This document shows, in pieces, positions 52,006-54,993 of a stretch of DNA of 64,000 bases. Position numbers and translations under genes: made by a program. Position 1 is the stretch's first letter; each line of letters opens with the position of its first letter. The notes beneath the pieces are model-generated. The model was given only the letters and a program-made list of their open reading frames with translations. It was not told where the DNA came from and ran no database searches. Origin of the DNA: Thermoproteota archaeon (GTDB lineage: Archaea > Thermoproteota > EX4484-205 > JAAOZO01); NCBI GenBank assembly GCA_041479945.1, contig JBGOYZ010000002.1, positions 7,472 through 71,471 of the forward strand. Direction: 5' to 3'.

Positions 52006-52932
52006 TCATATGGAGACATCGTTCAACGTGACGCCTAGTATAGAGTTCGCTTGGGGATATGCATCTCGAGCGGGCTGGATGCAGTAGCTGAAAGCGATGA
52101 ATGCTCTGTCTCCGAAGGGCATCACCGCCGTATAACCCCCTCCCCCATTTGGAAGGTCAGGGGCCAAGTCGAACGGACCTGTCCAAGCTTCCCCATCGTC
52201 AGCCGAGAGGTAGAACCCCGTGCGCAACCTCACCGGCATCAGTCTGCCGACTGCGACTAGGGCGCCCCCAACGTATGCGAGGACTGGGTGACGGAGGCGG
52301 ATGTTTGCCGGTTTTGACTCTGACCAGGTGAACCCATTGTCCTTGCTGGCCTTCTGGTAGTTCTCCATCGCTCTGTCCAAGTGGCATTGACAGAGGAGGC
52401 TGCCGTCTGGCCGGAAAACTACCGTGGGGTAACACGGATCCTCGTGAAACTCGGATGGCTGGAACACCAGGGATCTCCTCCGCCAGCTTGAGGCGTTGTC
52501 CTCACTCACGTACAGGATGATGCCATCCAGACTGTAGGCGATCATGTACAGAAGTCCGTCCCGCAGGAGAATGTGGGAAGAGGAGCCAAAATGTCCTCTT
52601 GGTCTGATAGGATCCACGTATCCCATGTACTCGTAGCCTTTTCCGTTGTCGGAGCTTATGCAGTATGTGCTGTTCAGCAGGCTTTCAGGATGTGGTAGCT
52701 TCTCATCCGGGCTTGCTCGTTGAATCACAAGGATGATCTTGCCGTCCGCCGTCAGACCAAATGCAGGGTTGCGGGATCCGACTCGCTTGTCGCGTTCATC
52801 GTAGGCGATGCTGTCCTGCCGCCAACTCCTCCCCTGATCACGACTCCGCATCTGATTTATGAAAGAATCCCGTCCCGGGTCGTCTAGGCTGTCTTGGTAC
52901 GCGACCAGCCAGTCCCCGTTGGGAGCTGCCAC
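52006..52932 (-). CDS. BNR/Asp-box repeat protein (sialidase-like beta-propeller)
   Basis: Five Asp-box repeats S-x-D-x-G-x-(T/S)-W: SRDQGRSW, SSDNGKGY, SEDNASSW, SKDNGFTW, SADDGEAW. GTG start. Confidence 0.65.
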   Translation of the reverse strand: MAAPNGDWLVAYQDSLDDPGRDSFINQMRSRDQGRSWRQDSIAYDERDKRVGSRNPAFGLTADGKIILVIQRASPDEKLPHPESLLNSTYCISSDNGKGYEYMGYVDPIRPRGHFGSSSHILLRDGLLYMIAYSLDGIILYVSEDNASSWRRRSLVFQPSEFHEDPCYPTVVFRPDGSLLCQCHLDRAMENYQKASKDNGFTWSESKPANIRLRHPVLAYVGGALVAVGRLMPVRLRTGFYLSADDGEAWTGPFDLAPDLPNGGGGYTAVMPFGDRAFIAFSYCIQPARDAYPQANSILGVTLNDVSI

Positions 52933-53283
52933 AGCTGCCGGACCATGCAGGAATCGTTCAGGCTTGTTATCTATGATAACTCTGGGGCCGAGATTGAACG
53001 AAACCAGTCCTTCTCCACCGAAGATGATATGTCGGGATCCGTATTAAAGAGCGCGCTGAGATCAGGAGCCAGTTCGCCCGACCCGCTGGCCTCTCCCAAG
53101 AAGCAACTGGTGACTGGTGCCCAACAATACTGCGACATTTCCAGCACAGACATAGGCATCGAGGCACTAGCCTTCCTTGCCACTGCTCGTGTCTTGTCTG
53201 TCGCGCTTGGCTTACTGAACCCCTCCCTCCTTCCTGCTGATGTCCTATTGGAGCTACGCCAGTCCAGGCTATCCAGACAAGTC

Positions 53284-53291
53284 TTAAATAT
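53284..53291 (+). promoter_or_regulatory. TATA box TTAAATAT upstream of the DUF5678/retropepsin pair
   Basis: 30 bp upstream of the ATG at 53322. Confidence 0.45.
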
Positions 53292-53321
53292 GGTAAAGCT
53301 CTCCACTCCTTTGAACGCCAA

Positions 53322-53567
53322 ATGAAAGAAACACAACTCTTGGAGCGGTTGGAGAGGGCCCAGAAAGACAGCCAGTGGGTCAGCGAGAGCTATGATGAGC
53401 TTCAGGAGAAGTACGAAGGCAAGGTCTTCGCCGTTAAGGATCAGGGAGTTGTTGAGGCGGCTGAGACCGTGGACGATCTCATGAGCAAGTTACAGGCAAG
53501 AGGAGAGGATCCATCGCTCTTCCTCATCGAAGCCATCCCGCCCAAGGGCATCTCATTCATTCTCTAG
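53322..53567 (+). CDS. DUF5678-like small protein (partner of retropepsin-like protease)
   Basis: 81 aa with pattern W...ELQEKYEGKVFAVKDQGVV...VDDLMSKLQ...P.LFLIE typical of DUF5678. TTAAATAT box 30 bp upstream. Confidence 0.55.
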   Translation: MKETQLLERLERAQKDSQWVSESYDELQEKYEGKVFAVKDQGVVEAAETVDDLMSKLQARGEDPSLFLIEAIPPKGISFIL

Positions 53568-53576
53568 GCGGGTCAG

Positions 53577-54026
53577 ATGACCCACATACCTTGCACTGTC
53601 AGAAGATTCGCAGATGGGTATTTGCCCTTTGTGACATTCAGCATTCTTCAGCCTCCCCTCTATGTCACAATTGACGCGCTTGTGGACACAGGGAGCCCGT
53701 TCACAGTGCTCTCGCCCAAGGATGCACTGAGCACTAGGTTGCCCCTCTCAAGGATGAGGAGCGGCCCGACCATTGGCTTGGCTGGTTGCACATTTTTCCG
53801 TCACAACATCGGAACGGTAGCATTGTATTTCAGGAAGGAGGATGGCAGACTGCTCAGCGTGGAGGTGCCATCCATGAATGTGTTGGTGCCTACGAAGATG
53901 GACAGCAAGACATTGGAACAGGTAGAGGCCATACCGAGCCTTGTTGGGACCGACCTTTTGAAGGACAAAGGGTGGAGCTTGTACTTCAACCCGGGCGCGA
54001 ACCGAGCCTACCTAGAAATCCCTTGA
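53577..54026 (+). CDS. Retropepsin-like aspartic protease
   Basis: Active-site ALVDTGSPFTV (D-T-G) and the downstream hydrophobic-G-T-D-LL (LVGTDLL), analogous to retroviral GRD/N. 9 bp downstream of the DUF5678 gene. Confidence 0.65.
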   Translation: MTHIPCTVRRFADGYLPFVTFSILQPPLYVTIDALVDTGSPFTVLSPKDALSTRLPLSRMRSGPTIGLAGCTFFRHNIGTVALYFRKEDGRLLSVEVPSMNVLVPTKMDSKTLEQVEAIPSLVGTDLLKDKGWSLYFNPGANRAYLEIP

Positions 54027-54136: not shown

Positions 54137-54229
54137 ATGCCAGCAAGCAAGGGAAAGAAGAAGTCAAAGGCAAACGAGCCCTGTGAATGTGGAAGCGGAA
54201 AGAAGACCAAGGACTGTTGCGGTAAGTAG
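54137..54229 (+). CDS. 30-aa SEC-C-motif zinc-binding mini-protein (MPASKGKKKSKANEPCECGSGKKTKDCCGK)
   Basis: Not in the ORF track (<60 aa). ATG preceded by GGAAGAGAGA. Cys spacing C-x-C-x8-C-C matches the SecA C-terminal/YchJ SEC-C metal-binding motif. TAG stop at 54227. Confidence 0.45.
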   Translation: MPASKGKKKSKANEPCECGSGKKTKDCCGK

Positions 54230-54402: not shown

Positions 54403-54993
54403 CTATGGCGGGGGAGGGAGACCCGGTGGAGGCGGTGGGGGGAAGCCCTGCTCGAATGTGGACCCAGTGCTCACTGGCCTGATTGGGCGGGACCTGCCAA
54501 AACCAACCAGTTTCTCTCCCAAAACACTCCTAAGCACGTTCATGTCCTGAGGGTCTGCGTCGAAGTTGAAGGAATAGTCGCCCTGCGGTGTCACTAGATC
54601 GAGAACGTAATAGTCCACTCCTATGCTTGAGTCCTCGTCAGGCTCCTCCTGCTTGTGCTCCACCGCGGCTACAGATACGCTCGATATTTCCACGGCTAGG
54701 TTTCCCGGAGTCTCGACGATGATCTGATCTGGAGTCATGCCCCAGTACTTGTTTGTGTATTCGATGATATCACCTGCAGTCAAGACTTTTCCGGCGAGCA
54801 GTCCTCCGAACAATCCTTTCTTTCCTTGCTGTGCTCTGATTTTTGACTGAACTTTGATTTCTTCCATCATCTGAGCTGTCAACTGGGCCACGATCAATCG
54901 CCGGTCGGTTGCGATTAGCGTGTACTGATGCGACCTGGCATAGCCAGCTGATTTCGAAAGGTGCGGAACTATCCCCGCTATCCTCTCTTCCAT
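54403..54993 (-). CDS. PH-domain-like hypothetical protein ending in C-terminal oligoproline tail (GFPPPPPPGLPPPP-stop)
   Basis: N-terminal YTLIATDRRLIV...KKGLFGG resembles bacterial PH/GRAM-like domains. ATG with a TATA-like CATAATAG about 30 bp upstream. Confidence 0.5.
   Translation of the reverse strand: MEERIAGIVPHLSKSAGYARSHQYTLIATDRRLIVAQLTAQMMEEIKVQSKIRAQQGKKGLFGGLLAGKVLTAGDIIEYTNKYWGMTPDQIIVETPGNLAVEISSVSVAAVEHKQEEPDEDSSIGVDYYVLDLVTPQGDYSFNFDADPQDMNVLRSVLGEKLVGFGRSRPIRPVSTGSTFEQGFPPPPPPGLPPPP

Follow-up and report, generated by a model that had tools for sequence, protein, structure and literature searches.

A gene for a small DUF5678 protein and a gene for a retropepsin-like aspartic protease form an obligate pair that is conserved across several archaeal lineages. 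The pair was studied in a 64,000-nucleotide stretch of the genome of a Thermoproteota archaeon (GenBank assembly GCA_041479945.1, contig JBGOYZ010000002.1, positions 7,472 to 71,471), referred to below as the window and numbered from its first letter. Both genes lie on the + strand and start with ATG: the DUF5678 gene (53322-53567) encodes 81 amino acids (aa), and the protease gene (53577-54026) encodes a soluble protein of 149 aa. The protease is a member of a distinct, uncurated family inside clan AA that falls in no existing curated family. We propose tentatively, with confidence somewhat short of even, that the two genes form a cassette in which DUF5678 binds and restrains the homodimeric protease, acting either like an antitoxin or like a prosegment supplied in trans. 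A sequence-only reading of the window had placed two open reading frames (ORFs) 9 bp apart at this site, and both were recovered at these positions, with a TAG stop codon and 9 nt between them.

Loci carrying the pair were collected from both of its sides. The protease-anchored set was drawn from relatives' contigs, from four distant family members and from scanning a single genome for each GTDB species; the DUF5678-anchored loci consisted of four contig look-ups and 44 metagenome loci. Together the loci collapsed to 45 clusters at 97% nucleotide identity. A DUF5678-type ORF was located directly 5' of the protease gene, on the same strand, in all 13 independent protease-anchored clusters, including members just ~25% identical to the window protease. 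The protease gene was in turn located directly 3' of DUF5678 in every DUF5678-anchored locus with enough sequence, the sole exception (L060) ending 135 bp past the small gene. Named genomes with the pair were all archaeal metagenome-assembled genomes (MAGs), assigned to Hecatellales, Iainarchaeum and Hadarchaeota or labelled Halobacteria and Methanobacteriota. The earlier description of the pairing as widespread in archaea thus stands as regards its conservation across lineages, with the correction that the distribution is patchy, though phylogenetically broad. In some loci, second, divergent pairs of DUF5678-like and retropepsin-like genes adjoined the first. One followed a truncated copy in tandem (L049, 864-2123; also seen in L048/L049), and another lay on the opposite strand 1.1 kb away (L031, 1641-2228, - strand), indicating that the modules can cluster.

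The window protease scored below the Pfam gathering thresholds (Asp_protease_2, 18.8 against 24.3 bits; gag-asp_proteas, 16.7 against 28.2 bits) and matched no NCBIfam model. Because its own Pfam matches are sub-threshold, it is the family profile, the sequence motifs and the predicted fold that place it in the retropepsin clan. A word-seeded search returned only nine relatives, and an exhaustive profile search returned 474 clusters at 50% identity, nearly all of 140-160 aa. When a 67-member family profile was searched against all PDB sequences, almost only aspartic proteases were matched, and all significant matches were retropepsins. The best was the Rickettsia protease APRc (8e-5), followed by the proteases of feline immunodeficiency virus (FIV) and Rous sarcoma virus (RSV) and by Ddi1; HMMER aligned the DTG motif of the family with DTGA of APRc. 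Among the 67 members, 44 matched Asp_protease_2 and 43 matched gag-asp_proteas at E <= 0.01, and the NCBIfam models TIGR02281 and TIGR03698 matched 9/67 and 3/67, respectively.

The structural prediction agreed with this assignment. An AlphaFold2 (AF2) model of the protease, built on eight sequences, had a predicted local distance difference test (pLDDT) score of 91.8 and a predicted template modelling (pTM) score of 0.84. The top 33 Foldseek matches in the PDB all had the aspartic-protease fold and were almost all proteases, two plant pepsin-fold seed globulins being included. Retropepsins ranked first (APRc, 5c9b/5c9f; the RSV protease, 2rsp; the FIV and equine infectious anaemia virus proteases), followed by pepsin-family enzymes. 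Taken with the Pfam and NCBIfam matches of the family members, the profile and the fold bear out the clan membership that the sequence-only reading had assigned.

The residues expected of an active enzyme were nearly invariant. The catalytic motif D37-T38-G39-S40 (53685-53696, with D37 at 53685-53687) lies within ALVDTGSPFTV (residues 33-43), and in 112 full-length homologues D37 was present in 111, T38 in 107, G39 in 110 and S40 in 105; the aspartate of the D-T-G motif, on whose conservation the earlier assignment depended, is thus conserved. The second signature, G124-T-D126-L-L (53946-53960), forms part of VGTDLL (residues 123-128) and of the longer PSLVGTDLL, for which the family consensus is PSIIGxDFL; here G124 was retained in 111, D126 in 103 and L128 in 102 of the homologues. 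A predicted beta-hairpin of residues 65-77 (53769-53807; DSSP strands 65-68 and 71-77) is the presumed flap, and the glycine at its tip (G70 of A69-G70) was kept in 97/112. The predicted protease carries all catalytic signatures, a residue pattern that is that of an active enzyme. Since each 149-aa chain contributes one catalytic aspartate in a single DTG motif, the protease should act as a homodimer. Both genes are under purifying selection, with a median ratio of nonsynonymous to synonymous substitution rates (dN/dS) of about 0.2.

The identity of the upstream protein as DUF5678, likewise proposed from the sequence, was confirmed by hidden Markov model (HMM) search: it passed the curated threshold of PF18929 (38.5 against 23.2 bits, E 9.9e-10), the alignment covering profile positions 1-48 of 49, and the same annotation was found on 54 of the 63 related proteins found. 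In its AF2 model (pLDDT 88.9), two helices at the N-terminus (residues 2-31) precede a small core of beta-hairpin, helix and strand (35-71), which gives way to an unstructured tail. A Foldseek search of BFVD matched DUF5678-named pandoravirus proteins (template modelling (TM) score 0.66-0.68, prob 1.0) and an unnamed siphovirus protein, the overall TM range being 0.66-0.76. Judged from predicted structures, these matches confirm the fold assignment and place the domain in viruses too; the entries are A0A2U7UD66, A0A2U7UG46, S4VV29 and A0A8S5LJB2. The phage T4 antitoxin Dmd (E = 0.12) and designed TIM-barrel repeats, which appeared in the searches of the PDB, were rejected as noise. Rejected as well, as a misannotation, was the Joint Genome Institute (JGI) product name "4-aminobutyrate aminotransferase-like enzyme" for DUF5678 proteins. 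The name probably derives from a similarity to class-III aminotransferases that is weak and local (NCBIfam E = 0.006, scoring 15 bits where the cut-off is 467); 81-aa DUF5678 proteins misnamed in this manner were found among P0010, P0206 and P0212, and one was called a quinol methylase.

The whole 81-aa protein is under purifying selection (dN/dS about 0.21), and its most conserved segment is the tail, ...LLIEAIPPKxVSFIL, which always ends at the stop codon. In the window the last ten residues, I72-L81 (IPPKGISFIL-COOH), are encoded at 53535-53564. Across 58 sequences, I72, P73 and I80 were invariant (58/58), L81 was found in 57 and F79 in 52. Over the same segment pLDDT fell to 74 at residues 71-80 and to 47 at residue 81. 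The divergent partners of divergent proteases retained a hydrophobic C-terminal tripeptide, with termini such as ...KIPIIL, ...GEVVFF, ...KGVAYIL, ...KVARIL, ...RRVNFLF and ...KYEFLF. An invariant yet unstructured terminus has the signature of a docking motif, and we propose the tail as a putative protease-binding motif.

The gap between the two genes was short throughout, with 9-12 nt from stop to start in 29/36 clusters. In the window, the junction (53565-53576, + strand) is composed of the DUF5678 TAG stop codon and the 9-nt spacer GCGGGTCAG, and contains a purine-rich Shine-Dalgarno-like motif. Purine-rich motifs of the TAGAGGGTGA-, TAAGGGAA- and TAAGGGAAC-types span the DUF5678 stop codon in the collected loci, the window version being TAGGCGGGTCAG. 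Start codons differed sharply between the two genes. The protease started with TTG in 26, GTG in 6 and ATG in only 4 of the 36 clusters, against ATG in 31/33 for DUF5678 (Fisher's test, ATG usage, p = 6e-13). No upstream ATG is open to the protease, because its stop-to-stop ORF begins right after the DUF5678 stop. The short purine-rich junction and the start-codon asymmetry together imply translational coupling in which the enzyme starts weakly and its partner is in excess.

Upstream of the pair, a TATA-like element TTAAATAT was read at 53284-53291 (+), at -38 to -31 from the DUF5678 ATG, and AT-rich TATA-like motifs occurred 30-50 nt 5' of the DUF5678 start in most related loci. The element is a plausible single archaeal promoter serving both genes with a very short 5' leader; one transcript for both is plausible because the 9-nt spacer is too small for a second promoter. 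An overlapping ORF (52894-53325, +, 143 aa) contains the putative TATA box, and its stop codon overlaps the DUF5678 start (ATGA). It was called by JGI as a 126-aa gene in some contigs, had no Pfam match and is probably spurious; as a candidate for a conserved third gene it was rejected, its relatives being confined to the same species.

Decay of the protease gene beside an intact DUF5678 gene was a recurrent feature. The protease was frameshifted, truncated or interrupted in about 7/36 DUF5678-anchored clusters, and both genes were degraded in one further cluster (L067). One case, L026, belongs to the window's own strain cluster; in this 300-kb JGI contig, nearly identical to the window, a 2-nt (GC) deletion at window positions 53788-53789 (L026 4467-4477), within the presumed flap, yields a frameshifted 152-aa protease product (P0004), while the DUF5678 gene differs from that of the window by a single base. 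Compared with L029 and L043, whose protease is intact and whose identity to it is about 97%, L046 had deletions of 1 nt and 2 nt in its protease; a further frameshift was found in L023. Elsewhere the protease lacked its first 27 residues (L020/L050), had lost residues 45-106 through an internal deletion (L057) or was truncated after residue 62 (L048/L049/L054). In L032 (541-1399) an 809-bp insertion separates the two genes; it carries a 163-aa ORF, and on either side of it stands a 50-nt direct repeat, a duplication of the DUF5678 3' end together with the junction, and the protease additionally has a nonsense codon after residue 77. The protease is therefore decay-prone and, as its frequent pseudogenisation indicates, dispensable. 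An intact protease without an intact DUF5678 was not seen among the 13 protease-anchored and 36 DUF5678-anchored clusters. Loss of the protease only is what a toxin-antitoxin-like relationship predicts, but the pattern is no more than suggestive.

The genomic context of the pair was variable. Sampling two ORFs per flank in 44 clusters yielded 133 ORFs, which represented 128 different Pfam families; the commonest were PIN (4), AAA_22 (3), DDE_Tnp_IS240 (2), rve (2) and nSTAND3 (2). Among these 133 ORFs no third conserved gene was found beside the pair, no transporter or modification genes were linked to it, and there were no cas genes or CRISPR neighbours. Neighbours seen at single loci included an Mrr nuclease, VapB/PIN, UPF0175/DUF3368, a phage-type integrase and DDE transposases. 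The survey of conserved neighbours that had been suggested for this locus thus returned the pair itself as the conserved unit, with unrelated genes around it elsewhere. By its variable neighbourhood, the cassette is self-contained and autonomous.

On these observations the proposed mechanism would run as follows. A single promoter would transcribe both genes of a self-contained archaeal cassette, and DUF5678 would be made first and in excess, from a strong ATG, against a protease translated from a coupled junction with a usually weak TTG or GTG start. The soluble protease would homodimerise to form its active site, and DUF5678 may bind it through the invariant, disordered, hydrophobic tail ...IPPKxVSFIL-COOH. 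Two geometries can be envisaged. In one, the tail would sit in the cleft where substrates bind and resemble a substrate or a product, its free C-terminal carboxylate at the aspartates; retropepsins prefer hydrophobic residues at P1-P4. In the other, the tail would be inserted in the four-stranded sheet of N- and C-terminal strands that constitutes the retropepsin dimer interface. In either case the protease would stay inactive until DUF5678 was removed or titrated, and free protease would be harmful. Dimerisation, tail binding, inhibition and the harm done by free protease are the steps that we infer. A stronger version, which we consider improbable, is that the pair represents a new class of toxin-antitoxin or abortive-defence-like module, a cytoplasmic retropepsin held inactive by a product-mimicking DUF5678 tail. 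It would then also be a prokaryotic, free-standing counterpart of the p6*-protease arrangement of retroviruses, regulated in trans instead of in cis.

Several results weigh against restraint of a harmful protease by DUF5678. The asymmetry in decay did not reach significance (one-sided Fisher's test, p = 0.067, unadjusted); the numbers are small, and the comparison is confounded by the different ascertainment of the two locus sets. Once gene length is allowed for, the probability that none of 13 protease-anchored clusters would show a degraded partner is about 0.19. For DUF5678 itself, neither Foldseek against the PDB (best E = 1.9) nor a profile run against PDB sequences gave a credible match. 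Pfam, Foldseek against the PDB and the PDB profile search revealed no ribbon-helix-helix, helix-turn-helix, AbrB or Phd/YefM DNA-binding fold in the protein, so it is not a canonical autoregulating type II antitoxin. PIN neighbours, at 4/133, were not clearly above background. PADLOC defence models and PHROGs gave only noise for the pair, and membership in a known defence or phage family was rejected on that ground. The pair was absent from IMG/VR viral contigs (2.9 million), INPHARED phages (searched with DUF5678 only) and PLSDB plasmids, and carriage on a mobile element was rejected accordingly. In the window species, the GC content of the module equals that of its surroundings and the module occupies the same site in all contigs, so there is no sign of recent mobility here.

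Four other explanations of the pair were weighed, and we rank them, from heaviest to lightest, as a substrate relationship, an adaptor or activator, a non-catalytic fold and a viral polyprotein remnant. The first would make DUF5678 a dedicated substrate or precursor of the protease, its N-terminal helices being removed or its tail trimmed in a maturation system. Strict co-occurrence and co-translation would be expected of such a system, the hydrophobic tail resembles the P-side of a retropepsin substrate, and the disorder of the tail would make it accessible. However, the tail is at the extreme C-terminus, which leaves nothing on the P' side to cleave off, and purifying selection extends over the entire 81-aa protein, beyond a core peptide. 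Intact DUF5678 also persists by dead proteases, recent events included, which is unexpected if the unprocessed product is useless, and linked transporter or modification genes are missing from the flanking ORFs. We regard this explanation as unlikely. Rather less probable still is that DUF5678 is a positive cofactor, a substrate adaptor or dimerisation chaperone, of a housekeeping enzyme of regulated proteolysis. Obligate pairing and coupling would suit such a role, the N-terminal helices could mediate further interactions, and the fixed site and genome-like composition of the module in the window species also speak for it. Against it stand the patchy distribution and the non-conserved neighbourhoods across distant archaeal lineages. 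Frequent pseudogenisation marks the protease as dispensable, and why an adaptor should persist without its enzyme would be left unexplained; weak start codons confined to the enzyme are also more readily reconciled with restraint than with activation.

The remaining two explanations carry little weight. The sub-threshold Pfam score could be taken to mean that the "protease" is a non-catalytic, peptide-binding module of the retropepsin fold, the pair then being a structural or regulatory complex without proteolysis; yet near-invariance across the 112 sequences holds for the catalytic Asp and the Gly, for the Thr of the fireman's grip, for the Gly at the flap tip and for the GxD motif, and we consider this explanation very improbable. 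The last explanation, to which we give the least credence of all, would see in the pair the remnant of a viral or retroelement polyprotein (gag-pro-like), fused by stop-codon read-through. It draws on the reading frame of the window ORFs, which is shared, with TAG and 3 codons in between, as it also is in L001 and L007, on the presence of DUF5678 proteins in pandoraviruses and a siphovirus, and on a family-B DNA polymerase gene that follows one distant copy. But the same-frame arrangement was observed in 11/36 clusters, the share of one-third that chance would give, and the stop codons in use were of all three kinds; nor were fused DUF5678-protease proteins present among the 150 best family representatives (at most 204 aa). 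Read-through to a fusion protein was rejected for these reasons. The viral contigs, phages and plasmids named above contained no matches, and the flanking-ORF survey revealed no linked reverse transcriptase, integrase or capsid gene. An origin as a viral polyprotein remnant is thus largely refuted. Restraint of the protease by DUF5678, tentative as it is, remains the reading we prefer.

Some further observations concern the surroundings of individual loci. In a 3.7-kb contig (L068, 1934-3711), a distant pair is followed directly by the family-B DNA polymerase gene, and this contig may be a mobile element. Another copy (L079, 6545-7819) has an actin-family gene at a distance of 2 kb, a hint that its host belongs to Asgard or TACK. 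In the window, a mini-ORF of 30 aa (54137-54229, +; MPASKGKKKSKANEPCECGSGKKTKDCCGK) scored exactly at the Pfam threshold for SEC-C (20.4 bits) and matched the C-terminal metal-binding motif of the YchJ/SWIM-SEC-C families (NCBIfam, E 2e-5). It was called by no gene caller in same-species contigs and was unlinked to the pair in other loci. The ORF at 54403-54993 (-) encodes 196 aa with FPPPPPPGLPPPP as the C-terminus; this protein had no Pfam or NCBIfam match and was conserved beside the pair only within the same species. The region had been described as a cluster of small unexplained genes; this description does not hold beyond the species, as the SEC-C mini-ORF and the oligoproline-tailed protein accompany the pair in same-species contigs only. 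Neither tRNA genes nor Rfam families reaching the gathering score were found in the whole 64-kb window, and it matches the NCBI MAG GCA_041500725.1 (contig JBGQMS010000023.1).

Retropepsins are among the best-studied enzymes in virology, and their prokaryotic relatives have barely been characterised; we know of no archaeal retropepsin with a known role. The literature search yielded no paper describing the pair or testing its function, and for DUF5678 it yielded one incidental mention, in plant proteomics. The sequence-only reading had also reported that the pair has been speculated to be toxin/antitoxin-like. This could not be traced to a source, as no paper was found that mentions DUF5678 in such a sense or that mentions the pair, and the toxin-antitoxin and "dark matter" papers of Makarova mention neither. 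What emerges from the analysis is a distinct family of retropepsin-like proteases of archaea, small and soluble, that existing curated HMMs miss, and the constant pairing with a protease is the first functional context for DUF5678. If the tail does inhibit the enzyme and free protease is harmful, an aspartic protease would join the repertoire of toxin and defence effectors, the tail-bearing protein would offer a natural protein inhibitor scaffold for retropepsins, and the pair would bear on the origin of the regulation of retroviral proteases by upstream peptides. Should inhibition prove wrong, the pair would still lend itself well to the study of how proteolysis is regulated in uncultured archaea.

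Among known systems, the layout of the pair is reminiscent of the type II toxin-antitoxin modules such as VapBC. In both, a small upstream gene precedes a slightly larger downstream gene for an enzyme, with translational coupling at a short or overlapping junction, the upstream protein has a disordered C-terminal region, and the downstream gene decays while the upstream gene persists; the context is variable, at times beside other toxin-antitoxin pairs and mobile-element genes. In contrast to type II antitoxins, DUF5678 has no detectable DNA-binding domain, and the pair had no match to toxin-antitoxin or defence HMMs. Because the DNA-binding feature of the antitoxin fails, we do not file the pair as a type II system. 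An aspartic protease as a class of toxin would, to our knowledge, be unprecedented.

Dedicated protease inhibitors provide a second comparison. In staphostatin-staphopain, Spi-SpeB and yeast IA3-proteinase A, a small, co-expressed inhibitor occupies the cleft of one particular protease. Such inhibitors protect the cytoplasm of the producer, and the proteases there are secreted or vacuolar. Spi resembles the SpeB propeptide, and IA3, whose target is an aspartic protease, is small and disordered. The folds in these systems are unrelated to those of the pair, as are the catalytic classes in the bacterial cases; moreover, both proteins of the pair appear to be cytoplasmic, and the inhibition proposed here is inferred.

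The closest item in the literature is a cas-associated protein of Sulfolobales. This protein, Saci_1895, is small, has a retropepsin domain and accompanies type III CRISPR-Cas in that order (PMC3973734). Like the window protease, it is archaeal, small and stand-alone, with no assigned role; it is linked to defence loci. It differs in its length of about 100 aa and its cas association, and no DUF5678 partner is reported there.

The Rickettsia conorii protease APRc (PDB 5C9B/5C9D/5C9F) gave the best structural match of the window protease (Foldseek E 1.3e-4, prob 1.0). It was also the best profile match (E 8e-5) and shares the single-lobe retropepsin fold with a DTG motif. Sequence identity between the two is just 15-19%. 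APRc is anchored in the membrane and works at the cell envelope; the window protease, by contrast, has no hydrophobic N-terminal segment. We know of no DUF5678 partner described for APRc.

The proteases of retroviruses, including the enzymes from HIV-1 (human immunodeficiency virus type 1), RSV and FIV, have the same fold and motifs as the archaeal enzyme, and in both settings a small polypeptide is encoded immediately upstream. HIV-1 p6* ends in ...GTVSFNF, which resembles ...KGVSFIL of DUF5678; we treat this resemblance as a lead and not as evidence. The arrangements differ in several respects. Here the two proteins have separate ORFs, each with its own stop and start, in contrast to the frameshift fusion released by autoprocessing in HIV-1; DUF5678 is a folded 80-aa domain, whereas p6* is a disordered linker; and the archaeal pair is accompanied by no Gag, reverse transcriptase or integrase. 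In vitro, HIV-1 p6* blocks protease activity, and the four residues at its C-terminus contribute to a delay in activation of the protease (reviewed in PMC8794111). By analogy, it is the nearest precedent for an upstream polypeptide that inhibits a retropepsin.

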